The notes: a model not told the origin generated them from the letters alone. Shown: positions 5,123 through 34,395, counted from the stretch's first letter. The stretch: 64,000 bases of DNA from Candidatus Freyarchaeum deiterrae (GCA_037305845.1 CP147778.1:608001-672000); one strand, 5' to 3'. Translations and numbers: made by a program.

Positions 5123-5239
5123 TGATGATGATGCGAAAAGAAGGTTTCCGATTTATCTTATATCCAAAATTTAGGACAATATGATTTGTGTTGGCATTTA
5201 TTAAGGTGAGTATGAACAACGTGATGAGTTCAACAGTGA

Positions 5240-6510: not shown

Positions 6511-6526
6511 CATTATTTAAATAATG
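6511..6526. promoter_or_regulatory. Perfect palindrome over the probable gdhA TATA box
   Basis: CATTATTTAAATAATG is self-complementary and contains TTTAAATA. Confidence 0.5.
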
Positions 6527-6631
6527 TGAATAGGAATCCGGTGAAGATTTTTGTCTTCTAATCTTCAACGGGTTTTCGAAGAGGTTGTGCTTCATATATA
6601 CAGGGAAATTTGATGAGAGGTGATTTGTTAA

Positions 6632-7951: not shown

Positions 7952-7955
7952 ATTC

Positions 7956-7972
7956 CCCTTACACTTTAAGGG
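7956..7972. terminator. Short hairpin between convergent gdhA and Lrp genes
   Basis: CCCTTA-CACTT-TAAGGG. Confidence 0.35.
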
Positions 7973-8003
7973 TTTAGTGATCCTACACATTTAGGGTTAG
8001 AAG

Positions 8004-8570: not shown

Positions 8571-8641
8571 TTTTCATTCCCGTAGCCTGATTATTGATTG
8601 GAAGCGGGTCATTCTTGCACTATTGCTAGAGTTAATGGCTT

Positions 8642-14450: not shown

Positions 14451-14507
14451 ACTGTAATATTACAGTCGTTGACTATAATATATTGCTTCGAACTGTAATA
14501 TTAAGGT
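14451..14507 (+). promoter_or_regulatory. Operator array for the adjacent wHTH regulator
   Basis: Perfect palindrome ACTGTAATATTACAGT (14451-14466) just after a TATA-like TTTATTAAA; degenerate copies at 14472 and 14492. Confidence 0.75.
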
Positions 14508-14838
14508 GTTCAAAATGTGTGGCGAAAACTATCCAAACAATAGACTGAATAAGCTGCAAAATTTGATGGGAGTGCTCCATTGCCCAACCCGTTGGTTAAT
14601 CATTGATTTTATAGGTGAAGGAACCAAAAGCACCAAGGAAATCTATGAGCATCTTATAGAAAATAATGAGAAACTAACCCCTTCGGGATTATACTATCAC
14701 TTATCCGAATTAAAGAATGGCGAAATCATCGAGGTTGCAGAGTATAAAGAAGATGGCGGAGGAGCACCAAAGAAGGTTTGGAAATTAAAGCAGAAAAAAA
14801 TAGTAATCGATTTGCTAAAGCCTGAAGGAGATGAGTAA
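14506..14838 (+). CDS. ArsR-like winged-helix transcriptional regulator
   Basis: LHCPTR..II..I, GLYYHLSEL...IIE HTH. Confidence 0.8.
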   Translation: MFKMCGENYPNNRLNKLQNLMGVLHCPTRWLIIDFIGEGTKSTKEIYEHLIENNEKLTPSGLYYHLSELKNGEIIEVAEYKEDGGGAPKKVWKLKQKKIVIDLLKPEGDE

Positions 14839-15049
14839 AATGTGTGGACCGGAAACAGGTAGACATCACGGAACGAAGGGCATGTGTGGATGCCAGAGTT
14901 ATTATCTGAAACCAGGATTTAAAGGAAGTATTATAATGGAAGACTTGACAAATGAGGAAAGGATAGAAATTCTAAAGGATTACAAAAAAATTCTGGAAAA
15001 AGAGCTTGAAAGCGTGAATAAGGAAATAAAAAGTCTCAAAGAAGAATAG
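14831..15049 (+). CDS. Small Cys/His N-terminal, coiled-coil protein (DUF5320-like)
   Basis: MCG...HHG..GMCGC then EERIE.LKDYKK.LEKELE.V.KEI..L. Confidence 0.65.
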   Translation: MSKMCGPETGRHHGTKGMCGCQSYYLKPGFKGSIIMEDLTNEERIEILKDYKKILEKELESVNKEIKSLKEE

Positions 15050-15068
15050 AGAAGGAGCAGTAAGCAGA

Positions 15069-16004
15069 TTGACCAGCGTCATAGAAGTAAGCAATCTCAC
15101 CAAGTACTACGGCGAGCAAACAGCGGTCGACCACATAAGCTTCAAGGTGAAGGCGGGTGAAGTCTTCGGCTTTCTTGGTCCAAATGGTGCAGGTAAGACC
15201 ACAACCATCAGGATGCTCACCGGAATAATTGAGCCGGATGAAGGAACAGCACAAATAATGGGATACGATATTCGCCGCCAAACAGTAAAAGCCAAGGAGC
15301 TAATGGGAATTTTGCCAGAAACATCAAATGCATACGTAGACCTCTCCGCTTGGAACAACCTTATGCTCATGGGAGAAATATACGGAGTTCCAAAAAAAGA
15401 GAGAGAAGAAAAGGCTAAGGAATTACTTCAGAGGCTCGGTCTTTACGAGAGAAAGGATGATCACGTAAAAGGCTTTTCCCAAGGGATGAAGAAAAGACTA
15501 ATGATATGTATGGCTCTGATACACAGCCCCCCGCTCCTATTTCTGGACGAACCCACAAGTGCACTCGATGTTCAGAGCACTAGACTCATCCGAGATATGC
15601 TCAGAGAACTAAATGAAAACGACACAAGCATATTTTTAACTACCCACAACATGGAAGAGGCGAATCTGCTATGCGACAGAGTCGCCATAATTAACCATGG
15701 GAAAATAGCAGCAATAGATAGCCCTGAAAAGCTGAAAAGCAGAATTGGTGGATTGAACTCGGTGGAGGTTAGCTTTACTTCTTCCCCAAAATTAGAAAGA
15801 TTAGCAGAAATAACCAACGTAAGAGAAGTTAAAAAGTTTGGAGATAAGTTCAGATTGTACACAAGCAATCCCAGTGAAGTAATAGCTCAAATAATGGAAT
15901 ACACCCAGAAAAACGATTCACAAATTGTGACTCTTCAAACTCTTGCTCCAACCCTAGAGGATATATTCGTCAAGCTCACAGAAGAGAAAGGAAGGAGTAA
16001 ATAA
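15069..16004 (+). CDS. ABC-2 exporter ATP-binding subunit (copy 1)
   Basis: GPNGAGKTT, FSQGM, LFLDEPT, TTH. Confidence 0.95.
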   Translation: MTSVIEVSNLTKYYGEQTAVDHISFKVKAGEVFGFLGPNGAGKTTTIRMLTGIIEPDEGTAQIMGYDIRRQTVKAKELMGILPETSNAYVDLSAWNNLMLMGEIYGVPKKEREEKAKELLQRLGLYERKDDHVKGFSQGMKKRLMICMALIHSPPLLFLDEPTSALDVQSTRLIRDMLRELNENDTSIFLTTHNMEEANLLCDRVAIINHGKIAAIDSPEKLKSRIGGLNSVEVSFTSSPKLERLAEITNVREVKKFGDKFRLYTSNPSEVIAQIMEYTQKNDSQIVTLQTLAPTLEDIFVKLTEEKGRSK

Positions 16005-16007
16005 ACT

Positions 16008-16763
16008 ATGACAGTTAAAGTGAGACATATTACGCAAAGTAAGCGTGCCTTTGTTATCGCAAAGAAGAATATTCGCATATACTACCTTAAAGGACCGGTA
16101 ATCACTTTCGGGATATTGATGCCGGTGTTCCTTGCCTTAGCTTTCTCTATTGGAAGAAATGTTTCCTTAAGCTCACTAATGCCCGGCTTATTTGCAATGA
16201 CTCTGTTCTTTACGGCAACAGCTGTAGGCCCACTAATCATGCCATGGGAAACTACCATGAGAACCCTTGAGAGATTGGTATCCACTCCAGCGAGCCTCCC
16301 CGCAATCATATTAGGGGACGTAATTGCCTCAGTTATCTTTGGGATCATCATATCTGTCGTGCCTCTTGTAGTTGGAGTATTTACGGGCGTAACCATAGCA
16401 AATTTCCTAATACTAATAGTAGGTATGGTAATTGCAGCATTCTGCTTTTCTTGCCTCGGAGAATTGTTCTCTGTACCTCCTACATCTATGCCAGCCCCGG
16501 TAATGATGCTTGCATCGGTTGTAAGATTCCCCTTGGTATTCATCAGTGGAATTTTTATACCAGTAGAACAATTGCCCGGATGGGGGCAAGCAATAGCACT
16601 CTTCTCCCCCCTCACTTATTTTACAGACCTAGTAAGATACGCTACTCAGGGGTCAGGGTATTTCCCAGTATTTGTGGACATAGGAATGCTCATACTGTTT
16701 AGTGCGATCTTCCTTTTTGCAGCAATAATCATCCACAAACGAAACCTATCAAAAAGGTTTTAG
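16008..16763 (+). CDS. ABC-2 permease (copy 1)
   Basis: Six TM segments, TLERL..TP, FISGIF.P...LP.W. Confidence 0.92.
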   Translation: MTVKVRHITQSKRAFVIAKKNIRIYYLKGPVITFGILMPVFLALAFSIGRNVSLSSLMPGLFAMTLFFTATAVGPLIMPWETTMRTLERLVSTPASLPAIILGDVIASVIFGIIISVVPLVVGVFTGVTIANFLILIVGMVIAAFCFSCLGELFSVPPTSMPAPVMMLASVVRFPLVFISGIFIPVEQLPGWGQAIALFSPLTYFTDLVRYATQGSGYFPVFVDIGMLILFSAIFLFAAIIIHKRNLSKRF

Positions 16764-17300
16764 AAACGATTTTAAGAGGCTTGAAGCCTCAACTTTTTTT
16801 CTCATCAGGTCTAAATATTTACCTAGCTATGCAAGTCTAGCACAAGTGAATCATTTTAAAAAAAGCCCTAGAAGAATCATATAAAATCCAAAATAGGTAT
16901 ATATTTAGCCTTTTTTGGTTTTTCAGCTTTAGAACGTACTTAAGCATGATTCGCAAGATTATTGCAATGATGGATGTGTCTGACAAAGAATCCGTTGCCG
17001 AAGCCCTTGGAAATCACCATGCTGGGCTATGAGGTAGTCGAGAAGATAGAAGCTCTACACCACATCGGCCAGAATACTACTCCCAAAAGATTGGGTCGGA
17101 AAAAGGGTCAGAGTTGTCCGACTGGCCTCCTAAAAGGACGGTTGGGAGAAGAGCTAAGTACATACGATAATAAAAAAGATTTTTTTATAAATCTAATAAT
17201 CTTAAAATAGATAAGAGGCTTCAATCTCCGAAAGGCGTAAATTTAGACATGGTTACACATGCTAATTGTAAAATTTTAGATTATTACTAGAGGACTTGAA

Positions 17301-17495
17301 ATGTTTATTAATATTCTCGGAACTACTGGCATGTGCGGATGTCCAAGTCATTATTTGAGACCAGGATTCGGAGAAGGCGTAACGGAAATCTTAACAAAAG
17401 GGGAAAGGACAGAAACGCTAAAGGATTACAAAAGAATCCCAGAGAAAGAGCTTGAAAGTGTGAATTGGGGAATGAGAAGGCTCAAAGGAGAATAG
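17301..17495 (+). CDS. Degenerate paralogue of the small Cys/coiled-coil protein
   Basis: GMCGC..Y L.PGF and LKDYK.I.EKELESVN shared with 14831-15049; altered N-terminus and a Pro in the coiled coil. Confidence 0.5.
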   Translation: MFINILGTTGMCGCPSHYLRPGFGEGVTEILTKGERTETLKDYKRIPEKELESVNWGMRRLKGE

Positions 17496-17513
17496 AGGGG
17501 GGCATTAAGTACA

Positions 17514-18440
17514 TTGAGCAGTATCATAAAAGTAAGTAATCTTACCAAGTATTATGGCGAGCTAACAGCTGTCGATCACCTAAGCTTCGAGGTTGAGAAG
17601 GGAGAGTTCTTCGGCTTTCTTGGCCCAAATGGGGCGGGTAAAACCACCACCATCAGGATGCTCACCGGGATAATTGAGCCGGATGAAGGAACAGCACAAA
17701 TAATGGGTCATGATATTCGCCGCGAAACAGTAAAGGCCAAGGAGGTTATGGGAATTTTGCCAGAAACGGCAAATGCGTACGTAGACATCTCCGCTTGGCA
17801 CAACCTTATGCTCATGGGAGAGCTCTATGATGTTCCCAAAAAAGAGAGAGAAGAGAGGGCTAAGGAATTACTTGAGAGGTTTGATCTTTACGATAGAAAG
17901 GATAGTCATGTAAAAGATTTTTCTCATGGAATGACGCAAAGATTGATGATATGTATGGCTCTAATACACACGCCCCCGGTTCTATTTCTGGACGAACCTA
18001 CAACTGCACTCGATGTTCATAGCACTAGGCTCATCCGAAGCATGCTTCGAGAACTAAATGAAAATGGAGTCACCATATTTTTAACAACTCACAATATGGA
18101 AGAGGCTAATCTACTGTGTGAGAGAGTAGCTATCATTAACCATGGGAAAATAGCAGCAATAGATAGCCCTGAAAAGCTTAAAGTCAGAATTGGCGGATTG
18201 AACTCGGTGGAGGTTAGCTTCACCTCGCCCCCTAATTTAGAAGAATTAGCTGAAATACCTTCAGTGAGGGAAGTGAAAAGATTTGGAGATAAGGTCAGAC
18301 TGTACACCAGTAATCCTGGTGAGGTAGCAATGAGCGTAACTGAGTATGCGCAAAAGATTAATTCGAGTATAGTGACTATTCAGACGCTTTCCCCAAACCT
18401 TGAGGAAGTGTTTGTTATGCTCACAGAGGGAAAGGAGTGA
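17514..18440 (+). CDS. ABC-2 exporter ATP-binding subunit (copy 2)
   Basis: Walker A/B motifs; close paralogue of 15069-16004. Confidence 0.95.
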   Translation: MSSIIKVSNLTKYYGELTAVDHLSFEVEKGEFFGFLGPNGAGKTTTIRMLTGIIEPDEGTAQIMGHDIRRETVKAKEVMGILPETANAYVDISAWHNLMLMGELYDVPKKEREERAKELLERFDLYDRKDSHVKDFSHGMTQRLMICMALIHTPPVLFLDEPTTALDVHSTRLIRSMLRELNENGVTIFLTTHNMEEANLLCERVAIINHGKIAAIDSPEKLKVRIGGLNSVEVSFTSPPNLEELAEIPSVREVKRFGDKVRLYTSNPGEVAMSVTEYAQKINSSIVTIQTLSPNLEEVFVMLTEGKE

Positions 18441-18449
18441 AAGGCAACT

Positions 18450-19205
18450 ATGATATTTAACGGAGGATTCAATAAGCAAATGAAACATGCACTTGCTATA
18501 GCAAAAAAGGACATTCGTATATACTACTTAAAGGGCTCAGTATTCACTTTCGGAGTATTAATTCCTTTATTCCTCTTCTTAGCGTTCTCCGTTGGAAGAA
18601 ATATTCCTATAGGTCAACAGATATCCGGCTTATTGGGAATGACTCTGTTATTTACGGCAACAGCTGTAAGCCCGATAATCATGCCATGGGAAGGGACTAG
18701 GAGAACACTTGAGAGATTGGTTTCTACTCCGGTCTCTCTTTCAACGATCATACTGGGGGATGTAATTGCTTCGTTCATATTTGGAATTATTATATCTATT
18801 GTGCCTATTGCTGCCGGGCTAATTATTGGCGTACCCATAGAGAATCCTATAATACTGGTAGTGGGGATAATACTTGCATCATTCTGCTTTTCTTGCATCG
18901 GAGAACTGTTCGCCACACCACCCACAAACGTACCCTCCACGATAATGATGCTTTCGTCGCTAATAAAATTCCCACTATTATTTGTCAGCGGAATCTTCGT
19001 ACCAATTCAACAATTGCCCGGATGGGGGCAGGCAGTAGCGGTCTTCTCTCCCCTCACCTATTTTACAGACCTAGCAAATTATGTAACTCAGGGGTCGGGG
19101 TATTTCCCAGTATTTGTGGACATAGGAATGCTCATACTGTTTAGCGCGATCTTCCTCCTCGCAGCAATATATCTCCACAAGCGAACTCTATCAAGCAGAC
19201 TATAA
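18450..19205 (+). CDS. ABC-2 permease (copy 2)
   Basis: Paralogue of 16008-16763. Confidence 0.92.
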   Translation: MIFNGGFNKQMKHALAIAKKDIRIYYLKGSVFTFGVLIPLFLFLAFSVGRNIPIGQQISGLLGMTLLFTATAVSPIIMPWEGTRRTLERLVSTPVSLSTIILGDVIASFIFGIIISIVPIAAGLIIGVPIENPIILVVGIILASFCFSCIGELFATPPTNVPSTIMMLSSLIKFPLLFVSGIFVPIQQLPGWGQAVAVFSPLTYFTDLANYVTQGSGYFPVFVDIGMLILFSAIFLLAAIYLHKRTLSSRL

Positions 19206-19434: not shown

Positions 19435-20601
19435 CTATTTACAACTAGTCTTGGTTATTTTCTCGGGAACAGGGGTTATTTTCTCCTTGAATAGTTTCTT
19501 TTTGAGCCAGAAGGAAACGGTTACCAGGTTTATGAGTACTGGAACCTCTATTAGTGGTCCTATAACTGCGGCGAATGCCTGACCCGAGGCTATGCCGAAA
19601 ACCCCTATGCAGACCGCTATTGCCAACTCAAAGTTATTACTTGCAGCCGTGAAGGATATGGTTGCTGTTTGCTCATAGCTAAATCCTAGACGCCAAGACA
19701 TCACGTAAGACACTAGGAACATTATAAAGAAGTATATGAGCAAGGGTATCGCAATTCTTAGGACATCAAAGGGATGAGTAAGGATTTTTCCACCCTGCAG
19801 TGAGAACATTACAACAACGGTGAAGAGTAGACCCACCAAAGCTGTTGGAGCAAGTTTGTTAACAAAGTGGCCATCGTACCACGCTTTTCCTCTTCTCTTG
19901 ACCAGAGCGTATCTAGTGATCATACCCGCAAAGAGTGGTACGCCCAAATAAATTGTAACACTCTTAGCTATATCAAGAAGTGATATGTTTACCGTCACAG
20001 CGCCTGTTAGGCTCAGTATCCAGGTGGGTACCCCTAGGAGTGTTAGAATCCCGCTTGATCCCGCAAGCCATGTCGGTGTTCCGGTGAGCCATGAGGGCAG
20101 TAGGGTGATAAACAGGTAAGCTAATGGAGAGTACATTATTATTTGGAAAACCGAATTTAGGGCGACCAGAACCGCGCAGAGTTCACACTCTCCTCTTGCG
20201 AGCTGGTTCCAAACAAGAACCATTGCTATGCAGCGAGCTAGGCCAACAATTATAAGCCCCATCCGGTATTCTGGTAAATCCGGGAGGAAAATCCATGCTA
20301 GTATAAACATTAGGATTGGACCAATGATCCAGTTTTGAACTAGGGAGACCCCGAACGCTTTTTTTTCTCCGCGGAGTTTTGAGAGTTCTTCGTATTTTAC
20401 TCTAGCAAGAGGCGGATACATCATCCATACGAGGCCTATAGCGATGGGTAGTGAAACAGCACCTAAACTCAATTCGTTAAGGAATCCGGGAATCTCAGGA
20501 AACAGGGCGCCTAGTAGAACGCCTATAGCCATGGCAATAAAAATCCACAGGGTTAGAAATCTGTTCAAAAGTGAGAGCTTTTCAGCTTGTTGCCCCGACA
20601 T
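19435..20601 (-). CDS. acr3: ACR3-family arsenite efflux transporter
   Basis: [65 protein letters not shown]. Confidence 0.96.
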
Positions 20602-20683
20602 AAACTGTTTCCTCTCATTTTTGGAATACTATCATTATTCTCTTTTTTTGGCTTATAATTACAGTGTTCGGTTTTAGTTTATA

Positions 20684-20708
20684 TATCGATAAATGTAAAT
20701 ATATCTAT
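20684..20708. promoter_or_regulatory. Putative ArsR-type operator upstream of acr3
   Basis: TATCG-N4-ATG-N3-ATATATCTAT, shared with 26318-26342. Confidence 0.55.
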
Positions 20709-21128
20709 TTTAGGGTAACTTTTTGCGTTATAGTATTTAAATATAATGGTGTTACTCTTAGCTGTGAGACTTTAATTTCAAAGGCTTTTGACCTTTTTAA
20801 TTTGGGGAGGTACCAGTAACTTGTTAGGGGAAAGCCTTTTTTCTGAGCATTAACCATATGCTTTTCCTTAACCAACACCAATATTAAAGATTGGATTGGA
20901 GTCTTACGAATTGCATTTTGGACTTTCCCAAGTCAATATTTACCTACGGTACCCGGATTCAATATTGAAAACTAAACAGTTAAACTTATCAATTTATGAT
21001 AATATAGATACAACAAAAATGTCGGAAACGGAAAAAGATTAACCACTATAATGCTTTATTAAAAGCATCAAGTATTGTTAGAGGAGTGCACAACTCAAAT
21101 CTTTTATGAGATTTGAATAGAAGGAGGA

Positions 21129-22586
21129 GTGACCACGAGCGGGATAACATCTTCGGTAGAGGTTTTAAAATCTACCATCGATAACAGATTTGTGCGTTTT
21201 CTTTTAAGAAGGCTAACCAGTAAGTGCGAAAAGGATGGCAAGAGCCGCCTAGGTGTCGCTCTGGAGCTCTTCTCAGGCGCAAGAGAAAAGGGTTGTTTCA
21301 CGTGCAGCCATTTAGCTCTACCTATTGTTCGCTGGGCTATAGGCAGGGGAGGATCGGCATTTGGTGTTTCGGGAGAGGATATGAAAAATAGATTCAAGGA
21401 TCCTTACTGGTGCACTGGTCTTATAGATGTGATTAAGGGAATTGCAAAGTATGGCATAAAAAAACCATTCGTTCCCGGTGCGCCGTTCCTGATTGTGTGG
21501 GATTACACAAACGCCTGCAACTTGAAATGCAAACACTGCTACGCCTCTGCTGGAAAACCCTTACCTAACGAGTTGAGTAGTGAAGAGGCACTTAGAATTG
21601 CGGACGAGCTTGCCGATGCCGGAGTTACCGCTGTTGCCTTTTCAGGTGGAGAACCCTTGATGCGAAAAGACATTTTCAAAACCATAAAACGTCTGAGAGA
21701 CCATGGAGTGTACCCAGCCGTGGCATCAAACGGGACTCTCATAAACAAAGAAATGGCTAAGAAACTTGCGAAAAGTGGTGTGGGTTTTGTGCAGATAAGC
21801 CTCGACGGAGCAAATTCCAATACCCACGACAGTTTTCGTGGCATACCCGGAGCGTACGAGGAAACGCTCTTAGGAATAAAGAACTGCGTCGAAAACGATT
21901 TATTTGTTGAGGCATCAACTACAGCCACAAAACTGAACTATTTGGAGATTCCAAGAATCGCAGATCTATGCGAGGAGCTTGGCGTTGACTGGTACATGAT
22001 TTACAACTTTGTGCCGACGGGTAGAGGGAACTTCATCACAGAAAACGACCTCTCTCCAGAGGAGAGAGAAGAACTACTCAAAACGCTGTGGAAAAGACTA
22101 CGTAATGGTGGAAAAATGCAATATCTGTCCACCGCTCCTCAGTTTGCAAGAGTCGCCCTACAAGATGAAAATGGATCGGAAAATAGGATTATACCAGGGC
22201 ACTTCTACAATCCTGTTCTTGCGGACCAGCTTCAAAACTTGGGAGATTTTATCGGTGGATGTGGAGCGGGGAGAATGTATGCAGGTCTTGAACCAGATGG
22301 TACTCTTAAGCCATGTGTTTTCCTGCCATTAAAATTGGGAAATCTTCGGGAGCAGAAACTTGAAGAAATATGGGACAGCCACCCTATTCTGAAAACTCTT
22401 AGAGACAGAACCCAGCTGAAAGGAAATTGTAGGAAATGCCAGTATAGAGAAATGTGTGGAGGATGCAGAGCCAGAGCCTACGGATACTTCGGTGACATCA
22501 CCGCTCCTGACCCGGGATGCATAAACAACACAGATGCTTTCGAAAAAATAGTAGAAAAAGAAAAGGAAAAAGAGATCAGTATTTGA
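21129..22586 (+). CDS. Radical SAM/SPASM-domain protein
   Basis: CNLKCKHC, FSGGEPL, SPASM GCGAGR...PC and C..C.....CGGCRARAY...DPGC. Confidence 0.93.
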   Translation: MTTSGITSSVEVLKSTIDNRFVRFLLRRLTSKCEKDGKSRLGVALELFSGAREKGCFTCSHLALPIVRWAIGRGGSAFGVSGEDMKNRFKDPYWCTGLIDVIKGIAKYGIKKPFVPGAPFLIVWDYTNACNLKCKHCYASAGKPLPNELSSEEALRIADELADAGVTAVAFSGGEPLMRKDIFKTIKRLRDHGVYPAVASNGTLINKEMAKKLAKSGVGFVQISLDGANSNTHDSFRGIPGAYEETLLGIKNCVENDLFVEASTTATKLNYLEIPRIADLCEELGVDWYMIYNFVPTGRGNFITENDLSPEEREELLKTLWKRLRNGGKMQYLSTAPQFARVALQDENGSENRIIPGHFYNPVLADQLQNLGDFIGGCGAGRMYAGLEPDGTLKPCVFLPLKLGNLREQKLEEIWDSHPILKTLRDRTQLKGNCRKCQYREMCGGCRARAYGYFGDITAPDPGCINNTDAFEKIVEKEKEKEISI

Positions 22587-22739
22587 ACAAATCGCTGCAT
22601 ATCAATCTGAACTTCTCTATTTTTCTTCAATTGCAGGATGCCCTTCAATTTCTTCTCAAATGATTCTGTGCTAAAAAGGTTTTAGAGATTTATTTGAAAG
22701 AGACATTAAGTTACATCTATTTTATCAATTTAATGGAAA

Positions 22740-23165
22740 TCATTGGTTTTCATAAAGTTCGTCTACTTTTTTTACAATTTCTTCCGCGATTTTCTCTGCT
22801 AATTTGTAACCCGCATCGCCTAATTCTTCTCTGGAATTAGGAATCAGATCAGGGTGTTTTTCCATTATTTCTTTTACTCGAACAGTTGCTGCCACAGGAC
22901 CGCTATAATTTTCTACTGCAATTTTGGCGCATTCTTCTTCGCATCCTTCAATTGTGATGGTTGGGTGGGTTTCTGCGAATTCTCTTTCTTCATTTCCACC
23001 ATGTCTTTCTAATCCCCCTGCCATGAATAGTGGTTGACACAGAATTACAGTCTTATCTGGGCGTAGCTTTTCAACAACTATTCTGGCAGCAGCTCGAGAC
23101 AGGGTGCCCTCAACTAAATTTTCTCCGCTGCATGCGATAATCCCAATTTTCTGTTTTATGGGCAC
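22740..23165 (-). CDS. DGC-domain putative zinc-binding protein (type B)
   Basis: IIACSG...GTLSR, C, IEGCEEECA. Confidence 0.85.
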   Translation of the reverse strand: MPIKQKIGIIACSGENLVEGTLSRAAARIVVEKLRPDKTVILCQPLFMAGGLERHGGNEEREFAETHPTITIEGCEEECAKIAVENYSGPVAATVRVKEIMEKHPDLIPNSREELGDAGYKLAEKIAEEIVKKVDELYENQ

Positions 23166-23602
23166 TAGTAATCACCCTCCTTTTTTTCTCCCAGTAACTC
23201 ATCAATTTTTTGTGTGATTTTTTCCGCAAGTTTACGAGATAATTTTTTCGCGTTTTTTCCTAAAGGAAAAACACTTTCCTCGGGTTTTAAATCACGGTTT
23301 TCTTTCAATATATCTGTGGTCATGAATTGAGCATCAACTTTTCCAACAGCTTCGGAAACATCATTATACGCACACTTGAGAGGGCAACCATCAATCACAA
23401 TGACCTTGTTCGATTTTAGTTTATCAATCACTTCCTTTTTACCTTTAACAATTAATGGAAGACATTCAATATCAGACTTGCCTTTAGCTAACTCATTCAC
23501 CACAATATATGCAGCTTCTCTGCCTAGTCCACCAAAAACTTTTCCGATTCCACTGCAAGGAAGTACATAAACTATTTTATTTGTTAATTTAATCGCCTCC
23601 AC
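23165..23602 (-). CDS. DGC-domain putative zinc-binding protein (type A)
   Basis: VLPCSGIGKVFG, CLPL, IDGCPLKCA. Confidence 0.88.
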   Translation of the reverse strand: MEAIKLTNKIVYVLPCSGIGKVFGGLGREAAYIVVNELAKGKSDIECLPLIVKGKKEVIDKLKSNKVIVIDGCPLKCAYNDVSEAVGKVDAQFMTTDILKENRDLKPEESVFPLGKNAKKLSRKLAEKITQKIDELLGEKKEGDY

Positions 23603-24470
23603 TTTTTTTCATGTGTTTTCTTTCCTCTTCTATTTTCTTTTTCATATGCTCAAAATAAGCAGGTCCGTCCATTAGCAATTCTTTATCTTCTTCAAAATTT
23701 TTCAATTCTACTTCTACAAACCATCCTCCACCATAAGGGTCTTGATTCAATAGATGCGGTGAAGCTTCTAATTCCTTGTTCACAGCAGTAACTTTGCCTG
23801 AAGCGGGAGTAATCAGTTGAAGAATAGTCTTAATAGATTCAAAGGATCCGACATCACCGAACTGCTCAAATTCTAAACCAATTTCGGGAAGTTCGACAAA
23901 AATTATGTCACTCGCTTTATTTTGGAGAAAATCGGAAATACCCATAAGTGCTTTTTCACCATTGGGTTTTACCCAACAATCATTTTCATTAAAATAGTAG
24001 CCAGACTTAGGAACTTTGAAATGAAATTTGTCTACAGTAGTTTCAAAATATTCAATTTTGCCTAATTCCCGAACTTCAGTTACTTCTTCCCTTGATTCTT
24101 TTAGATAATCCAAAATCTCTGTTGCCATACACCCCGCTAACTTTTGCCCTTCCTCACTCAAAATGAGAGATTTTCCCGGCTTTAACTTATATTTTTTAGT
24201 CATGTCAGGAGTAAAGATTTTTTTCCTCGGTTTTAGGGATTTTTGATCAATCAACTTGGTTGCACAGCGAGTCATACACCCATCAATCACAATTATATCA
24301 GATTCCTTCAAAATCTCTTCATATTTTTCGTTACCAGTATTTAATAGAACTGGACATATTAGCTCAATATCAGGATCTTTTTCTATTACTTTTAATGCAG
24401 CATTTCTAGTAATTACGCCTAGAGATTTATCAAGTCCATTGCACGGTAAAATGCAGACTTTTTTTTTCAT
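23589..24470 (-). CDS. DGC domain fused to a glycine cleavage H-like lipoyl-carrier domain
   Basis: N-terminal ILPCNG..CP..IDGCMTRCA; C-terminal WV....A.MGISDFLQ...DI.FVELP..G, ESIK lipoyl lysine, VN..L...P.L.N.DPYG.GW. Confidence 0.9.
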   Translation of the reverse strand: MKKKVCILPCNGLDKSLGVITRNAALKVIEKDPDIELICPVLLNTGNEKYEEILKESDIIVIDGCMTRCATKLIDQKSLKPRKKIFTPDMTKKYKLKPGKSLILSEEGQKLAGCMATEILDYLKESREEVTEVRELGKIEYFETTVDKFHFKVPKSGYYFNENDCWVKPNGEKALMGISDFLQNKASDIIFVELPEIGLEFEQFGDVGSFESIKTILQLITPASGKVTAVNKELEASPHLLNQDPYGGGWFVEVELKNFEEDKELLMDGPAYFEHMKKKIEEERKHMKKSGGD

Positions 24471-24476
24471 TGAGGC

Positions 24477-24785
24477 TCACCTTGTTTCGTTTTCCTTTCT
24501 TTGTTTTTTAATTAATTCGGTAATTTCCTTTTTATCTGGAAATGAAAGAGCATCCGGGGCACATGTTTTGGCGCAAGCCCGACAAAAAACCACACAATTG
24601 TATGGATTTTTAACTATCAATTTCTTGTCTTCATTTTCTCTTCTTTCATAGACATTGTGAGGACAAAACTTGTCGCATTCCATGCAGAAATTACATTTAT
24701 TATAATCGATTGTAGGGAACCAAGGAATTTTTTTTCGAGGAACCCCCATAAAAGTCTCTTTATCTGCATCATATTCTTTACTCAT
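24477..24785 (-). CDS. 2x[4Fe-4S] ferredoxin
   Basis: CNFCMECDKFCP and CVVFCRACAKTC. Confidence 0.9.
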   Translation of the reverse strand: MSKEYDADKETFMGVPRKKIPWFPTIDYNKCNFCMECDKFCPHNVYERRENEDKKLIVKNPYNCVVFCRACAKTCAPDALSFPDKKEITELIKKQRKENETR

Positions 24786-25168
24786 TTTTTCCCCTCCTTC
24801 TTTTCATTGTACTCGTTTAATGTTTTTTCGACCAATTCTACAGCTTCATCAGTTGTCTTTTCTCGTACATCAAGTGGTATAAGGTCTTTTTCTACATCAA
24901 GTCCTGCTTTTTTAAAAGCGTCTCGAAACAATTTGTATTGCATATTAGGAGCACATCCGGCAACCAGATACTTTCTTCCAGGACGCAAAAAATCACCTAG
25001 AAAGCGATCTCCATCAACCTCACAAAGCTGAGGATGAATAAACGCATACTCCACGGGGAGTTCTACCCGTACTCGGTTAATAAAATCCCAAATATCCATT
25101 TTTGCAAACCCAGGACATTTACCAGTGCATACGCACATTATAACTCCAACATTTTTTTCTTCGCTCAT
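24782..25168 (-). CDS. Stand-alone HdrA N-terminal-like domain protein
   Basis: VGV.MC.C...C, LC..DG, LVAGCAP......FR.A...AGL, DVRE resemble the HdrA N-terminal domain. Confidence 0.75.
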   Translation of the reverse strand: MSEEKNVGVIMCVCTGKCPGFAKMDIWDFINRVRVELPVEYAFIHPQLCEVDGDRFLGDFLRPGRKYLVAGCAPNMQYKLFRDAFKKAGLDVEKDLIPLDVREKTTDEAVELVEKTLNEYNEKKEGKK

Positions 25169-25272
25169 TTTAATTATTCTCCTTTTTTATGATATTCATC
25201 AAAATTTTTTGATGCTTCTAAATAACTATGCCTTTTTACTCGATTAACTAAAGCTAATTTATCAACTATTTT

Positions 25273-25713
25273 TCATTTCTCTTGTTCTTCCTCGTTCGTC
25301 TGTTTCATTTCGCTTAGTATTCTGTCCACTTCCTCTGCGATTTTCTCCGCAACTCTCTGAGCCAGCTTTTCGCCTTCTTCATCTAGTTTAGCTCTGGATT
25401 CAGCTTTGAGCTTACATTCATTCATTATCTCGGGAATCTGAATTACCGCAGCCAAGTTTCCTTTATGCTTTCTAATACTCTTTTCAGCACATCTCTTGTC
25501 ACAACCATCAACGACAATTGTGGGTTGTTTCTTAACAAAATCCTGATCTTCTTTTCCACCAGCAAGGTAGAGAGGTAAGCAGATTGTCATGGTTTGGGTG
25601 GGTCTTAACTTCTCCAAAACGATACGCACAGCAATCCTGGTGACTGTTCCCTCCGGTATTTCTTCACCACTGCAAGGTACAATTCCCACTATAGGTATCA
25701 TCAACACCTTCAA
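25273..25713 (-). CDS. DGC-domain protein (type B)
   Basis: IVPCSGE...EGT.TR, CLPLYLAGG, VDGCDKRCA. Confidence 0.87.
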   Translation of the reverse strand: MKVLMIPIVGIVPCSGEEIPEGTVTRIAVRIVLEKLRPTQTMTICLPLYLAGGKEDQDFVKKQPTIVVDGCDKRCAEKSIRKHKGNLAAVIQIPEIMNECKLKAESRAKLDEEGEKLAQRVAEKIAEEVDRILSEMKQTNEEEQEK

Positions 25714-26123
25714 CCTCCTTCAGACTCTAATATCCTATCAATTTCTAGTGCAATTTTTTGAGCCATTATTTCTGCTAACCTTTTCCCCTTTGGGTCAAGT
25801 TCTCTTATGGCAGTTTGATTAGGCTTCAAGTCTCTGTTTTCTTTCAGCACACTGGTAACATTAACTTTGTTAACTATTCTTCCGCCAGCGTTTTTGACCG
25901 CTAACTCTGCACACTCTGTTGGGCAACCGTTAATAACGATACATAGGTTCTCTTGAACGAGCCTCCTAGCATCATCGTCCCCCACCACCAGCAACGGTAG
26001 ACAAGTGATTAAGGTTTTTTCTGGTCTCAGTTGCTCGACAACCTTGTAGGCTGCTTCGCGTGTAATTGTTCCAAAAACTTTTCCCACACCACTGCACGGT
26101 AAAACCACAACTTTTTTAGTCAG
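25710..26123 (-). CDS. DGC-domain protein (type A); start uncertain (CTG 26123 or GTG 26108)
   Basis: VLPCSGVGKVFG, CLPL, INGCPTECA. Confidence 0.87.
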   Translation of the reverse strand: MTKKVVVLPCSGVGKVFGTITREAAYKVVEQLRPEKTLITCLPLLVVGDDDARRLVQENLCIVINGCPTECAELAVKNAGGRIVNKVNVTSVLKENRDLKPNQTAIRELDPKGKRLAEIMAQKIALEIDRILESEGG

Positions 26124-26317
26124 CTTTCAATTCCTCCTTTATTACTTTCTTTACGCCTAGGTTCCATCCACCCTTTGCGATAGATACTGGCAAAATTCTA
26201 ACCTCTTGTTCCTTTTTGAATTTCTCATTCCCATATGAGATTTCCTCCTAATTGTAAAGATAGGTAAGGGATCAGATTTTCTGTTATTGACACAACTGGC
26301 GTGGAAGGATTTAAATT

Positions 26318-26342
26318 TATCGTTTCATGACGATATATCTAT
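26318..26342. promoter_or_regulatory. Putative ArsR-type operator upstream of the DGC operon
   Basis: Palindrome TATCGT-N6-ACGATA next to a minus-strand TTTAAATA TATA box; matches the acr3 upstream motif. Confidence 0.6.
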
Positions 26343-26399
26343 ATTTAAAATTGTGTTTTGAAGGATTGTCTGGTTGTTTCGTCATCTTGAATCTCAATT

Positions 26400-26760
26400 T
26401 TCTCTTCTACCACCTTTCATTATCCTACATAATTGGTAGAAGGCTAAAACGGTGAACATTTGGAATGCAAAACCTAATGCAACAGGTAAGGAAAACCAAA
26501 CCCCCAAACAATGTAAGGACTATTCCCAGAAGCAATTGGTAGATTTTTCATCCTAACGAATAGGTTATTGCGATGTTCTTTTTGAATAAAGTATTTGGTT
26601 GACAAAATGTAGGAAGTAAAGAGCAACACTAGAAAAATGGCGATTGTAGACACCATAAGCGGCGTGATTAATGATACATTTGAGCCAACAGGATACAATA
26701 ATATACTCAATGGTTTCTCAGCCAAGCGGATTTTATCAAGTTTATAGCTCTTCTCTTTAG
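26400..26760 (-). pseudogene. Frameshifted C-terminal remnant of an Acr3/bile-acid:Na+ symporter-like transporter
   Basis: Joining frames gives ...MKNLPIA/GIVLTLFGGLV/PVALGFAFQMFTVLAFYQL, resembling BASS/Acr3 terminal helices. Confidence 0.55.
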
Positions 26761-26875
26761 ACTTAATGAGAACAGATTTGAGTAATTATTGAATTCTTTT
26801 CTATTGGGACGTATACTTTGTTTAATAATTTGTTGTTGCGTTTTTTAGATAAGCCGTATAATAGAAAATATTGAA

Positions 26876-27166
26876 TTAAACGTTTGATGCCTTTATAGCA
26901 TCCTGAGGTGCCTTTAGGGCATCTTGAATTGTTTTTTCCAATTTTTCTGCTTTGAAAAACTCGGGAAACTTTTCGGTGCCGTTTACCACCAGTCCCTTAC
27001 TACCGATATTGAGTTCTCTGGCTTCCTCCGATGAGGAAGATTTTATATCAAATTCGACCTGGTTTCGGTATTTTGTGAGTACATTAAAAACTCGATCCAT
27101 GAATGCGGAGAATTGACAGGAACAGGAGCCTACGGGAATGAAAATATCTATTTTAACTTTGGACAT
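26876..27166 (-). CDS. Small thioredoxin-fold protein with CxC (possibly ArsD-like)
   Basis: KIDIFIP.GSCSC N-terminus, LVVNG strand; GGAGG RBS. Confidence 0.55.
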   Translation of the reverse strand: MSKVKIDIFIPVGSCSCQFSAFMDRVFNVLTKYRNQVEFDIKSSSSEEARELNIGSKGLVVNGTEKFPEFFKAEKLEKTIQDALKAPQDAIKASNV

Positions 27167-27706
27167 AGAACTTTTCCTCCTATTATTTTAAACATAATTT
27201 TTGAACACCGTAAATACATAATTTTTGTTTTGATCATGTCTTGAGAGATTGTGATTTGAGCTCAGCGTCAGCGTTCCGGTTCTTTCTTGTGTTATAATTA
27301 AATTGCAAGTTTTTAAATTTATTGGTATATGACAATATATCAATAATAGTAAAATTACATACTCTAAACAAAGCAGTATCACTTATTTTGATATATTTAT
27401 ATTTTCTATTTTATTATTTAGGATATGGCTCAGGATCAGAGTTAACCTTTTAGACATCACTGTTCATAGGAGCTATGAATTGTGCGTTGAAGTGCCTGCT
27501 AATTTATATATTCAAAATCTCGAAATCTATGCGAATATTACTATATTTCAATAATTTTATAATAGTCATGTACATTAAATATTATTTAGAGAATAGACAA
27601 AGAAAGATTCGAAAACTCCTATCAGACTATCCTTGCACATATTGTTGAAGACTAGAAAAAATATGTCAATGGGTTAACGCTTGCCTCAAGTTAAGGAGGG
27701 AATTTA

Positions 27707-28036
27707 TTGGCCATCGAGAAATTAATTACGAAAAAAAATGTGGAGTTATTGAAAGCATTAGCAGATGAAACAAGATTGAAAATACTTCAGTTTTTGGGCG
27801 TGGAGGAGAAGTGTCAGTGTGATATTGTCCCTGCTATGGAAAAATCGCAGTCCACAATTTCTCAACACCTTCAAATTCTAACAAATTCGGGAGTTCTGGA
27901 GTACCGAAAAGATGGACAGAGAAGCCTCTACAAATTGAGAGATGAAAGAATACACAAAATAACCGAATTAATTAATAGCATTTCCAAAGATTCCCTTTTA
28001 GAAATATCCAAACTAGCAAAATCAATCAAAAAATAG
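27707..28036 (+). CDS. arsR: ArsR/SmtB metalloregulator
   Basis: KALADETRLKIL, EKCQCDI (alpha3 CxC site), SQSTISQHL..L...G. Confidence 0.92.
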   Translation: MAIEKLITKKNVELLKALADETRLKILQFLGVEEKCQCDIVPAMEKSQSTISQHLQILTNSGVLEYRKDGQRSLYKLRDERIHKITELINSISKDSLLEISKLAKSIKK

Positions 28037-28237: not shown

Positions 28238-28672
28238 TTACGGGGCTTTCACCTATGTGGTGAATTTGTAGTGATGATCCTCTTCTTATTGGAGTATTTG
28301 CTCAAAGAGGAATTTAGTTGTGACATCCTTTTCTTTCGTGGCTACATCGATTATCTTTTTGTACATGTCAATTGCGCTTTGTTCAGCGTTAATGTCCAGT
28401 TTAATCATTTCTTCCAAGTTTTTACCTATGGTGATGGGGGCGGGTTTGGTTGTTGGGTCACCGCCGAGATAGTTGAGTCTTTCCGCGATGCTTTCGGCGT
28501 GTTTCATTTCTTGAATGGCTATCTGTTTTAGTTCCTCAACTATTGCTACACTTATATAGCCGGTGGCCTTTACGTGCTGACACATGTACTGGATAGATAC
28601 TTGTAGTTCTGCGGCTATGGCCTTGTTTAGCCAATCTTTTAACTCCGCACTCGCTAATTCGTCCACCTCCAA
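28238..28672 (-). pseudogene. Bacterioferritin/ferritin-like gene with premature stops
   Basis: LNKAIA.EL..SIQY, EMKHAE.IAERL.YLGG, E..AI..Y; in frame it continues ILQ*EEDHHYKFTT*VKAP* (TAA 28288-28286, TAG 28255-28253). Confidence 0.8.
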
Positions 28673-31089: not shown

Positions 31090-32208
31090 GTGGGTGGTTT
31101 ATTGTTCGTAAAGCAAGGTGTCTGTTTCGCTGTCTTTGACGAAAATGAAGGACCAATTTGTGTTCATTTTAAGGGAATTGAAAGACCTATTGCGGAAAAG
31201 ATCGCCTTAAAGAGTATGGTTGCCGCACTATCTTTTAGTCAGCAGGTAGAAGAGGGAGAATCCATAATCCCTCTTCAAGAGGAAAAGCGTAACGCTTTTG
31301 TCTACTATTTCTCTGTAGCCGACGAGAAAGCTAGAGGGAAAGAGAGAGTCGGAACACTCAATTTCGTTGTTAACCGTGAGGACGGTGATGCGCTTTACCG
31401 TTTTGCTCCGATTCTCTTAGAGCACTCGAAAAGAATAGTGCAGGATATTAAAAAATACTATGTTTACAGGCAGCCGATTCCCCAAGTTCTAATGGACAGC
31501 GTGAATAGTATTTTATCAATCGACTTTGAGAGAGTAGCTCTGCCCGTTATTTTTGAAGAATATTTAATTCAAATATATCTCTCTAGGAATACTACTTTTC
31601 ACCGTTCGATTGTGGAAAAAACAAATAGCATTTCTCGGAATGAAGAAATTTTTGGAGACAAAATTGGTATCGTGGGGAGAGACGAGAATCAAAATATTGT
31701 TTGGATACTTCTCTCTTGTAATTTTTCAAAAATGAGTAATGAGCAGAAACAGAAGTTATATGGTGTTATAGATAAACTAGGAAATAATATCCCGTCATTA
31801 GAGGTAACATTTGTTCTTAACGAATTGGGTCTGAGAAAAGACGGCTCATTCGATGAGAAGATGATTGAAAAAATTACCCGAATTTCCAGAACAAAAGAAG
31901 TTGAGGGAAAAGAATTCGACCTATGCGGAACGAACGCTGGTAAAAAAATTGTTTGGGCACTTTTATCGAAAAACTTTCTAGCCATGGACGAATCTGATAT
32001 GGATGAATTAAACAGGAAAATTTACAGACTTAAGAGAGAAAACCCCTCAATGGAAGCATTCTTCACTCTGGCAGAAATACTTAGAACAACTAAACTGCAG
32101 CCTCCAAAATCAGATTTTGAAGAAAAACCCACAGGAATTAAAAAAAGAATTGGAATAAAAACAGAATTTCAAAGTTATATGAAAACTCTTAGAGAGGAAA
32201 AAAAGTAA
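31090..32208 (+). CDS. Folliculin/SMCR8-like longin (uDENN) domain plus duplicated C-terminal domain (paralogue 1; probable start TTG 31102)
   Basis: FAVFDENEGP; F.V.D.KARG..R...L.FVV; internal ~80-aa repeat. Confidence 0.6.
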   Translation: MGGLLFVKQGVCFAVFDENEGPICVHFKGIERPIAEKIALKSMVAALSFSQQVEEGESIIPLQEEKRNAFVYYFSVADEKARGKERVGTLNFVVNREDGDALYRFAPILLEHSKRIVQDIKKYYVYRQPIPQVLMDSVNSILSIDFERVALPVIFEEYLIQIYLSRNTTFHRSIVEKTNSISRNEEIFGDKIGIVGRDENQNIVWILLSCNFSKMSNEQKQKLYGVIDKLGNNIPSLEVTFVLNELGLRKDGSFDEKMIEKITRISRTKEVEGKEFDLCGTNAGKKIVWALLSKNFLAMDESDMDELNRKIYRLKRENPSMEAFFTLAEILRTTKLQPPKSDFEEKPTGIKKRIGIKTEFQSYMKTLREEKK

Positions 32209-32513
32209 AGGGACTGAACATACTTTACAATTAGAGTTTTTTAAAGCATAAAATTAAACAGAGCGCGATAAATTATACTCTCCGATTTAAGAGTTTTGGA
32301 ATTATCCTAAGCACAACATAAGTAGCTTTGTTAAACAGTATCCCCTGTGCAGTATCTGCCTAACTACAAAAGTTTTTAGATTTTCTCAATAAGTTTATAT
32401 CAGGGTGTTATAAGAAGAGTTACTATTACTTTTATTAATAATAGGAGTATTCAGAAAACATTTAATACCAATGCTTGTTGCCTTTTATTTAAGGGAAAAG
32501 CGAGAGTGATAAT

Positions 32514-33641
32514 TTGTTTGAAAAACGCGGTGTTTGCTTTGCTATTTTCGATGAAGAAACCGGTCCAACTAGTGTTTATTTTAAGGGAATCAGCAAAACA
32601 ATTGCCGATAAGATCGCTTTGAAGACCATAGTTGGTGCACTTTCTTTGAGCCAGCAAGTGGATGAGGGAGAATCTATAATTCCCATTCAGGAAGAAGAGA
32701 AGAACGTTTTTGTCTACTATTTCTCCGTAGCCGACGAGAAAGCGAGAGGGAAAGAGAGAGTCGGAACACTCAATTTCGTTGTTAACAGGGAGGATGGTGA
32801 TGTGCTTTACCGTTTTGCTCCGATTCTCTCAGAGCACTCGAAAAAAGCGGTGGAGGACATTAAAAAATACTACGTTTACAGGCAGCCGATTCCTCAAGTC
32901 CTAGTGAATAGCTTGGAAGGTATTTTATCAATCGAAGACTTTGAGAGAGCAGTTCTGCCTGATAGTTTTAAAGAGTATCTAATTAGAAGCTATCTTTCAA
33001 GGGATACTACTTTCCATCGTTCAATAGTGGAAAAAACAAGCAGTATTTCTCGGCATGAAGAAAATTTGGAGGAAATAGTGGATATCGTGGGAAGAGACAA
33101 AAACAAAGATATTGTTTGGGTGCTTCTTTTTCGTAATTTTTCTAGAATGAGTGATGAAGAGAAAAGAAGTCTATATTTGTATTTAGATAAGCTTAGAGAG
33201 AATATTTCTTCTCTGGAGGTAATATTTGTTCTTAACGAATTGGGTCTTAGAAGAGGGGGCGCATTCGACGATAAAACAATTGAAGAAATTACTCGAATTT
33301 CCAGAACCAGTGAAGCTGATGGAAAAGATTTTGATTTATACGGAACAGACAATAACGATAATATTGTTTGGGCCCTTTTATCGAAAAACTTTCTAACCAT
33401 GAACGAATCAGAAATGGATGAATTAAACAAAAAAATTTACCAACTTAAGAGAGCGAACCCCTCAATGGAAGCTTTCTTCGCCCTAGCTGAAATACTCAGA
33501 TCAACCAAACTAGAAACTCCACCACCAAAAAAACCGGAATTTGAAGGAAAACCCATAAGACTTAGGAGGATTATGGGAGCAAAAACAGAATATCAAAGTC
33601 TTATAGAATCGCTTAGGAAAAAAGAAAAAGAAAAAAAGTAG
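32514..33641 (+). CDS. Folliculin/SMCR8-like longin protein (paralogue 2)
   Basis: Colinear paralogue of 31090-32208. Confidence 0.6.
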   Translation: MFEKRGVCFAIFDEETGPTSVYFKGISKTIADKIALKTIVGALSLSQQVDEGESIIPIQEEEKNVFVYYFSVADEKARGKERVGTLNFVVNREDGDVLYRFAPILSEHSKKAVEDIKKYYVYRQPIPQVLVNSLEGILSIEDFERAVLPDSFKEYLIRSYLSRDTTFHRSIVEKTSSISRHEENLEEIVDIVGRDKNKDIVWVLLFRNFSRMSDEEKRSLYLYLDKLRENISSLEVIFVLNELGLRRGGAFDDKTIEEITRISRTSEADGKDFDLYGTDNNDNIVWALLSKNFLTMNESEMDELNKKIYQLKRANPSMEAFFALAEILRSTKLETPPPKKPEFEGKPIRLRRIMGAKTEYQSLIESLRKKEKEKK

Positions 33642-33894
33642 TTTTTTAGACCCAAAATTAAGCATAGAAGAGCGAATTGGGCCTATTTATAAAGGGCGGG
33701 GATTTATCCTGAGCATTTATCATAATCAGCAATTCTAAATAATATTACTCAAATTATAAAGTTTTAAGATGCTTTCAATAAGTTTATATCTGTGTATGCA
33801 AAAAATAACATAATTACAATGTTTGCAGGATTTCGAAAAATATTTAAGACGATGCTCGTGAGCCCTTAATTAAGGGAAAAGTGGGCGTGATGAT

Positions 33895-34395
33895 TTGTTT
33901 GAAAATCGTGGAATTTGTTTTGCTATTTTCGACGAAACGGCGGGTCCAACAAGTGTTTATTTTAAGGGAATCGATAAGACAATTGCGGATAAAATCGCTT
34001 TAAAAACTATGGTTGGTGCACTTGCTTTGAGTAGGCAAGTGGACGAGGGAGAATCTATAATTCCCATTCAGGAAGAACAGAAGAATGCATTTGTGTACTA
34101 TTTTTCGATAGTCGATGAGAAAGCCAGGGGAGGAGTTAGAATAGGTGTACTTAGTTTCGTTGTGAATAAGGAAGATGGTGACGCATTATACCGTTTGGCT
34201 CCGATTCTCTCAGAGCACTCGAAAAAAGTTGTGGAGGACATTAAAAAATACTATGTTTACAGGCAACCGATTCCCCAGGTTCTAATGGACAGCGTGGATA
34301 GTATTTTGTCAATCGAATTTGAGAAATTATTATTAAAAAAAGATAAAGAATCCAGAATTAAGGGTGCTCTAAAACACGAAGAGGATATTTGGTAG
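33895..34395 (+). CDS. Folliculin/SMCR8-like longin-only protein (paralogue 3)
   Basis: Same N-terminal domain (DEKARGGVR) with no C-terminal repeats. Confidence 0.6.
   Translation: MFENRGICFAIFDETAGPTSVYFKGIDKTIADKIALKTMVGALALSRQVDEGESIIPIQEEQKNAFVYYFSIVDEKARGGVRIGVLSFVVNKEDGDALYRLAPILSEHSKKVVEDIKKYYVYRQPIPQVLMDSVDSILSIEFEKLLLKKDKESRIKGALKHEEDIW

Follow-up and report, generated by a model that had tools for sequence, protein, structure and literature searches.

An arsenic-linked gene set of Asgard archaea and anaerobic bacteria built around a DGC-GcvH lipoyl-carrier fusion

Introduction

What is a lipoyl carrier doing between the gene for an arsenite exporter and that for an ArsR-type repressor? 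The question is raised by a locus at positions 19435-28036 of a 64,000-nucleotide stretch of DNA (GCA_037305845.1, CP147778.1:608001-672000; hereafter the window) from the complete 3.58-Mb genome of Candidatus Freyarchaeum deiterrae. Here acr3 and arsR enclose genes for five domains of the DGC family (PF08859), one of which is fused to a lipoyl carrier resembling the H protein of glycine cleavage (GcvH), together with a ferredoxin and a small protein, HdrN, that resembles the N-terminal domain of the heterodisulfide reductase subunit HdrA. An initial annotation of the window read these genes as a ferredoxin/Hdr-like-fed dithiol relay that reduces, captures or hands arsenic to Acr3 in place of the usual ArsC/thioredoxin route. 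By surveying the gene set across genomes, and by analyzing its promoters and predicted structures, we find good support for a real, undescribed module whose link to arsenic is well founded genomically, and for which we propose a chemistry. Lipoamide has long been seen as the target of arsenite; if our reading is true, this module deploys it as a defence.

Results

The minus strand of the locus carries, in order, DGC-A1, DGC-B1, HdrN, ferredoxin, DGC-GcvH, DGC-A2 and DGC-B2. The gene positions given by the initial annotation were all confirmed on the sequence, as was its description of tight junctions (four overlap, one is a 6-bp gap and one, from DGC-B1 to HdrN, a 104-bp gap), and all five of the DGC domains that it named pass the Pfam cut-off for PF08859. 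The nearest named homologues are from Jordarchaeia/Freyarchaeota, at 82-83% identity, and mark the host as a probable Asgard archaeon. Relatives of the fusion are encoded on 252 GTDB stretches, of which the best 80 were examined along with three others; the underlying homology search gave 833 matches for the fusion, the best 120 being nearly all full fusions, and 1350 for HdrN. The hosts include Loki-, Heimdall-, Jord- and Bathyarchaeia, Acetobacterium, Eubacterium, Desulfosporosinus, Clostridium, Synergistia and Actinomycetota, among others, and no plasmid copy of the module was found at an E value of 1e-30.

This survey defines a core of five genes. The strict order HdrN, ferredoxin, DGC-GcvH, DGC-A, DGC-B is kept in 61 of the 69 loci with enough flanking sequence, and three further loci miss it solely through a C-terminal extension of DGC-B. 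The extension, of about 90 residues and often beginning with CxC, was seen in the bacterial copies L034, L035, L055, L057, L064, L073 and L083. In the window, where all five core genes lie on the minus strand, the first is HdrN (24782..25168), with one His and five invariant Cys (100% conserved among homologues) that probably bind an Fe-S cluster. It is followed by the ferredoxin (24477..24785), an unusually conserved protein with two Cys motifs of the [4Fe-4S] type, which would hold the corresponding clusters, and by the fusion (23589..24470), in which a four-Cys DGC domain is joined by a flexible linker to an H-protein domain. DGC-A2 (23165..23602) and DGC-B2 (22740..23165) complete the core; each has four Cys that are invariant among homologues (C16, C47, C73 and C77 in the former; C12, C43, C75 and C79 in the latter). 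A 1.4-Mb Asgard genome (L114:8323-10269) has HdrN and the ferredoxin together with ArsR and a ferritin-like gene but no DGC genes near them, and the HdrN-ferredoxin pair may therefore be a separable sub-module.

The case for an arsenic function rests on what flanks this core. The acr3 gene (19435..20601, minus strand) encodes an arsenite efflux permease that exceeds the TIGR00832 equivalog cut-off (427.7 against 282.8 bits) and is the only copy found in the genome. At the other end, the arsR gene (27707..28036, plus strand) encodes an ArsR/SmtB repressor of the As(III)/Sb(III)-sensor type, which passes NF033788 and whose only two Cys form a CQC motif in helix alpha3; the window thus combines an As(III)-type ArsR with a linked arsenite exporter, as expected of an ars regulon. 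The same CxC pair is present in all 35 of the divergent ArsRs adjacent to the module that we compared, most of which have no other Cys, and in the ArsR of R773 it suffices for As(III) binding (10.1101/2022.10.17.512643). Neighbourhood counts were made on 51 loci of at least 15 kb (the long loci), which include related genomes that are not independent and inflate the counts; of these, 46 contain ArsR and 30 contain ars genes. Within about 10 kb of the module, acr3 occurs in 17 of 50 loci against 0.23 expected by chance, an expectation derived from whole-genome acr3 counts and likewise affected by kinship. Representatives of the neighbouring ArsA, ArsD and ArsM proteins pass their NCBIfam cut-offs. 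The initial annotation had named a lack of ars or metal genes beside homologous operons as one finding that would refute the proposed arsenic link, and the link came through this test with strong enrichment of the module beside acr3 and other ars genes. In phylogenetic trees the module-adjacent acr3 genes fall into three well-supported Acr3 clades, and the Acr3 of the window groups with bacterial Acr3 and not with the Loki-type. The fusion of the window, in contrast, falls among those of Asgard archaea; together these patterns suggest repeated recruitment.

A shared promoter motif ties the exporter to the module within the window. This 22-bp imperfect palindrome lies upstream of the operon that holds the DGC and HdrN genes (26315..26336), between the small thioredoxin-fold gene and arsR, upstream of the former (27317..27338), and 80 bp upstream of acr3, where it abuts a TATA-like box (20681..20702); a weaker copy (20984..21005) precedes the radical SAM gene, and all four are on the minus strand. 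Our first pattern was built on the three stronger sites, that of acr3 included, and was hence circular. Seeding with the two module sites alone recovers sites in relatives before HdrN and the DGC pair; in these relatives the motif also precedes a thioredoxin-DUF5714-LplA operon and an FeS-ArsR-LplA operon. For the test, both strands of the 3.58-Mb genome were scanned with a matrix made from seven sites of relatives, none of them from an acr3 or SBF promoter. The acr3 site ranks third genome-wide with this matrix, which was trained without it (ranks one and two are the seeds, and circular), and the radical SAM site ranks 5-6. The best rank with 60 column-shuffled matrices was 149, and the symmetric 20-bp core alone places the acr3 site ninth. 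These ranks point to a putative operator shared by exporter and module, a second feature expected of an ars regulon, and we infer that ArsR is the protein that binds it. The motif in its Freyarchaeia form was not found in the Loki, Heimdall and Bathy loci, nor before the host genome's own arsM, lplA or gcvH. A candidate operator nearer to arsR (~27515-27536) was rejected, since it ranks 17271. In locus L116 (3143-9000), which is from a relative, the motif was seen before a molybdopterin oxidoreductase operon and an intact SBF permease gene.

The DGC-GcvH fusion departs from a housekeeping H protein in several respects. Pfam places its DGC domain at residues 7-97 and its GCV_H domain at residues 158-278; the four Cys of the former are 91-100% conserved, and the lipoyl acceptor of the latter, Lys214 (codon 23831-23829, minus strand), 99%. 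The predicted structure has two confident domains whose relative orientation is not fixed (predicted local distance difference test, pLDDT, 92; predicted template modelling score 0.59), in keeping with the mobility expected of a carrier. The H domain superposes closely on the pea H protein 1dxm (Z 22.4, root-mean-square deviation (rmsd) 1.0, 131 residues aligned), and so has both the fold and the lipoyl Lys of an H protein. The fusion nevertheless scores under the GcvH cut-offs (109 against 115.85 bits for TIGR00527 and 111.3 against 117 for NF002270), with another copy in the genome reaching 172.7. Neither gcvP nor gcvT is among the recurrent neighbours of the module. The initial annotation had remarked that the window holds no GcvP or ArsM, and this is correct; GcvP does occur elsewhere in the genome, ~630 kb from the module, as do an ArsM-like gene and, likewise missing from the window, a canonical GcvH and two lipoamide dehydrogenases. 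As the genome has its own canonical GcvH and GcvP, the fusion is dispensable for glycine cleavage.

In the H domain, moreover, DCW takes the place of the HEW of solved H proteins. The Cys at the Glu position, Cys165 (codon 23978-23976, minus strand), is shared by 111 of 120 homologues gathered with no use of the motif; among bacterial copies, 37 of 47 have it. In GcvH this Glu (Glu14) is part of the wall of the cleft in which the loaded lipoyl arm rests, and Cys165 could for that reason, by analogy, offer As(III) a third thiolate. A stand-alone GcvH-like gene of the host genome (L120:8198-9782) has Cys at the same position (HCW) and adjoins lplA and a membrane hydrogenase-like complex.

Genes that would load and recharge the lipoyl arm recur beside the module: an LplA-type ligase or a lipoamide dehydrogenase (LpdA) is found in 23 of the 51 long loci, and LipA adjoins the module in three. 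In nine loci LpdA, which passes TIGR01350, precedes HdrN in the same orientation at a distance of 12-247 bp, although the five genomes checked have no more than 1-6 LpdA copies. In the Freyarchaeum genome, lipoate ligases, LipS1 and two LpdA-like genes are available in trans. The co-located LplA, LipA and LpdA lend support to the initial idea of a lipoyl dithiol, with its chemistry still a proposal. The same genes could be explained if arsenic induced a spare lipoyl and Fe-S pool to compensate for damage, the fusion being a lipoyl or octanoyl donor or a repair platform and not an arsenic carrier. GcvH acts as a lipoyl donor via LipL in Firmicutes (PMC10332631), LplA (13 of the 51 long loci), LipA, cysteine desulfurase and an E2-E3 fusion occur nearby, and the motif precedes LplA operons in relatives. 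This account, however, leaves unexplained the conservation of at least three Cys4 DGC domains, the ferredoxin and the change from HEW to DCW, and no LipL/LipM-like cluster stood out among the recurrent neighbours, although no search aimed at that family was made; we regard it as improbable.

The identification of HdrN as an HdrA-N-like protein holds. The 128-residue protein has no Pfam match, but a profile search finds the N-termini of HdrA structures in the PDB (7bkb_A, E 5.7e-4, in an alignment that pairs CxC, C and C), and its predicted structure (pLDDT 87) has HdrA as its top seven Foldseek matches. By sequence it covers HdrA residues 5-93, and it has no FAD/thioredoxin-reductase-like domain. 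The DGC proteins have a generic alpha/beta fold; their best match is 3pu6 (Z 10.6, rmsd 2.9, 114 residues aligned), and HybD-like and flavodoxin-like folds are matched as well. We saw nothing in favor of the notion that DGC is MvhD-like, which would make the module a split HdrA-MvhD arm: MvhD is absent from the top 50 fold matches. Prediction of a DGC-A/DGC-B complex gave a score of 0.54 against 0.01 for the best control. Of 80 solved pairs 58 reach the mark, as do 2 of 110 mismatched ones, but only 7 of the 80 do so with 0.60 or less, a range that also holds both mismatches. At least 79% of the contacts are common to the runs, the partner pLDDT is at least 84, and the prediction lends weak support to a DGC-A/DGC-B complex.

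Whether the module also replaces ArsC, as first proposed, depends on the host. No ArsC of either family was found in the complete Freyarchaeum genome, nor was any match to PF01451 (LMWPc, with its CX5R loop), the module included, and arsC is nearby in none of the 20 long archaeal loci. In bacterial loci, the ArsC neighbours retain CX5R and are of the intact thioredoxin type, with a representative scoring just under its NCBIfam cut-off. The replacement of the ArsC/thioredoxin route is thus possible for archaea, and does not hold for bacteria, because their loci often carry an intact ArsC. A broader form of the idea is that the module supplies electrons for arsenate reduction, from NADH and LpdA or from ferredoxin through the lipoyl arm to a DGC or thioredoxin-fold protein, and from there to As(V) directly or to ArsC. 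A genome with acr3 and no ArsC, the archaeal loci without arsC and the nine co-operonic LpdA genes would fit this scheme, and the ArsC neighbours in bacteria could be its acceptor. Nonetheless, a CX5R oxyanion loop is missing from the consensus of DGC, the fold match of DGC to low-molecular-weight protein tyrosine phosphatase is only generic (Z 6.9, rmsd 3.7, 110 residues aligned), LMWPc-family genes lie elsewhere in many module-bearing Asgard genomes, and the intact bacterial ArsC speaks against a substitute; we judge arsenate reduction an unlikely principal role.

The locus also has accessory genes outside the core, namely those for the second DGC pair, the thioredoxin-fold protein and the radical SAM protein. 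DGC-B1 (25273..25713) and DGC-A1 (25710..26126), both on the minus strand, also occur in close relatives and at loci L001 and L018; the start of DGC-A1 called by the open-reading-frame tool is 26108, and the probable start is a CTG near 26126, because homology extends to that point. The small thioredoxin-fold protein with CxC (26876..27166, minus strand) is a recurrent archaeal companion (22 loci) and resembles thioredoxin-like folds, with an Atlas TM score of ~0.7 to Thioredoxin_3 clusters that is a lead only. The radical SAM/SPASM protein (21129..22586, plus strand) is NirJ/AhbD-like and below every equivalog cut-off; it was rejected as a core member, since its cluster occurs in only three loci and is syntenic only in close relatives. 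The gene pieces described initially as an Acr3-like relic (~26415..26680, minus strand) are indeed a pseudogene, but one of an SBF-family (Acr3-related) permease and not of Acr3 proper. These frameshifted C-terminal pieces match an intact 391-residue SBF protein of a relative (E 7.9e-13), with an intact orthologue at loci L116 and L006 that belongs to PF01758 SBF and has no NCBIfam match at 1e-25; an origin as an acr3 duplicate was rejected, as the pieces do not match the Acr3 of the window.

Several further genes in the window were noted. A ferritin-like gene that may be truncated at its C-terminus (28286-28672; 128 against 139 residues) adjoins arsR, and similar genes lie beside ArsR at L003 and L114. 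The region immediately 3' of acr3 (14506-19205) encodes, on the other strand, a helix-turn-helix regulator and then a doubled unit of a small Cys/His-rich, DUF5320-like peptide, an ATP-binding cassette (ABC) ATPase and a permease; at L007, too, an ABC pair of this kind is close to the module. Three tandem paralogues at 31090-34395 are likely, judged by sequence, to be eukaryotic-signature proteins of the longin/DENN type, given the weak match of the first to Folliculin (PF11704). A 967-residue Asn-rich NosD/beta-helix surface protein with membrane segments at its termini is encoded at 10725-13628.

Discussion

Our analyses favor, if by a narrow measure, a new arsenic-defence chemistry of Asgard archaea and anaerobic bacteria, in which a dedicated dihydrolipoamide arm, recharged by lipoamide dehydrogenase or by an HdrA-derived Fe-S pair, would bind or reduce arsenic and pass it via Cys4 DGC proteins to efflux. 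A more specific version, to which we give somewhat less than an even chance, is that the module is an ArsR-controlled As(III)-handling set of anaerobes, with a protein-bound dihydrolipoyl dithiol serving as the trap and carrier that feeds efflux. Dihydrolipoamide is a known target of As(III) (PMC3368394). In the model, As(III) would free ArsR from the motif and so induce acr3 and the module, and LplA, with LipA or LipS1/S2, would lipoylate Lys214. The arm would be held reduced by LpdA and NADH, by the ferredoxin-HdrN pair or by both; the initial annotation had named only a ferredoxin/Hdr-like feed, and LpdA/NADH is as likely a source of electrons. The arm would then capture As(III) or methyl-As(III) through its S6 and S8 atoms, to which Cys165 might add a third thiolate, before the lipoyl enzymes of metabolism do so. 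Finally, the Cys4 DGC domains, one in cis and the DGC-A/B pair, would unload the arm and hand the arsenic to whichever exporter is present (Acr3, ArsP or ArsD/ArsA).

A number of points weigh against this As(III)-handling model, for which the evidence is all genomic. No ars gene lies within about 10 kb in 21 of the 51 long loci, and in 12 both ars and lipoyl genes are missing. In the four nearest relatives Acr3 proper is likewise absent over that distance, and the Acetobacterium genomes, one exception aside, have no acr3, most of them keeping arsA, arsD and arsC beside the module. Kinship among genomes inflates the linkage counts. Cys165 is Ser or another residue in 10 of 47 bacterial copies, and the host's unrelated stand-alone H protein also has Cys there. 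In its oriented form, the motif overlaps a TATA-like box, and ArsR is its binder by inference. Sulfur-relay genes (DsrE/F/H, TusA, YeeE, TauE or cysteine desulfurase) occur in 21 of the 51 long loci.

The last of these would be expected of a module for thiol, sulfur or soft-metal stress in general, be it an LbpA-like persulfide relay or a response to Sb, Hg or Cd, gathered in ars islands through shared ArsR-family regulators. The HdrA-N homology recalls sHdr-LbpA, some copies stand beside CDF pumps or a P1B-ATPase with an HMA protein, and those of Eubacterium lie among ABC transporters. Such a module would not readily account for ArsRs that uniformly carry the alpha3 CxC, nor for arsenic-specific ArsA, ArsD and ArsM neighbours that pass their cut-offs; moreover, the motif was not found before the dsrEFH genes of the relative L003, and sHdr subunits are absent from the recurrent neighbours. 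We think this explanation quite unlikely. The neighbourhoods themselves vary: at L116 (in the 3143-9000 region) a P1B-ATPase with an HMA protein is directly 3' of the module, and in Acetobacterium (L039-L065) arsA and arsD are beside it and MFS, CDF and ArsP-type genes nearby, with no acr3 match in the genome.

If the module does deploy lipoamide in defence, it would add a new branch to the arsenic resistance known from settings of arsenic mobilization, namely anoxic sediments, aquifers and wetlands, would give the DGC family (PF08859) its first function, and would show a stand-alone HdrA N-domain at work outside Hdr. Cultured acetogens that carry it (Acetobacterium malicum, A. carbinolicum, Clostridium ragsdalei and Eubacterium callanderi) bring it within experimental reach. 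We found no description of the module in the literature searched, which left out most subscription journals; the sole mention of PF08859 that we found reads DGC, wrongly, as diguanylate cyclase.

A comparison with known systems places the module more closely. With GcvH (PF01597/TIGR00527) its H domain shares the fold, the lipoyl Lys and LpdA as the likely partner, but it differs in the DGC fusion, the sub-equivalog score, DCW in place of HEW and the lack of P and T genes among its recurrent neighbours. HdrN is a true homologue of the N-domain of HdrA in methanogenic Hdr complexes (7bkb, 5odc), and it is encoded next to a ferredoxin, a domain that HdrA itself also contains; HdrN, however, has no flavin domain, and the module genes alone would therefore not carry out bifurcation. 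In the Lpd-DlaT-AhpD-AhpC relay of Mycobacterium tuberculosis, electrons pass from NADH through Lpd to a protein-bound lipoyl group and on to a Cys adaptor in stress defence. The module resembles this relay in its chain of NADH, LpdA, lipoyl and Cys for stress defence, but has a dedicated carrier instead of an E2 and additional Fe-S proteins, with no AhpD or peroxiredoxin among its recurrent neighbours.

The sHdr-LbpA system (PMC10332631) shares with the module a GcvH-like carrier outside glycine cleavage, linked lipoylation genes, Hdr-related parts and, sometimes, DsrE/TusA. In contrast to that system, whose hosts are sulfur oxidizers, the module is found in anaerobes in the context of ars genes, has of HdrA only the N-domain, without its FAD domain, and has no HdrB/C or other sHdr subunits in its cluster. 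The closest likeness is to ars regulons with accessory thiol proteins (ArsR-Acr3/ArsP-ArsC-ArsD/ArsA and ArsE/MTH895), among them the arsenic-induced arsR5-arsP-arsE-DGC operon of Pseudodesulfovibrio mercurii, in which a single DGC is of unknown function (10.1101/2022.10.17.512643); common to these and the module are the CxC ArsR, Acr3, a small thioredoxin-fold protein and DGC. The module adds a lipoyl carrier, an HdrA-N domain, a dedicated ferredoxin, the DGC-A/B pair and co-located LplA/LpdA, none of which we found in ars operons as described. It does not qualify as GcvH proper, sHdr-LbpA, HdrA or ArsC, and by its context it belongs to the ars regulons.

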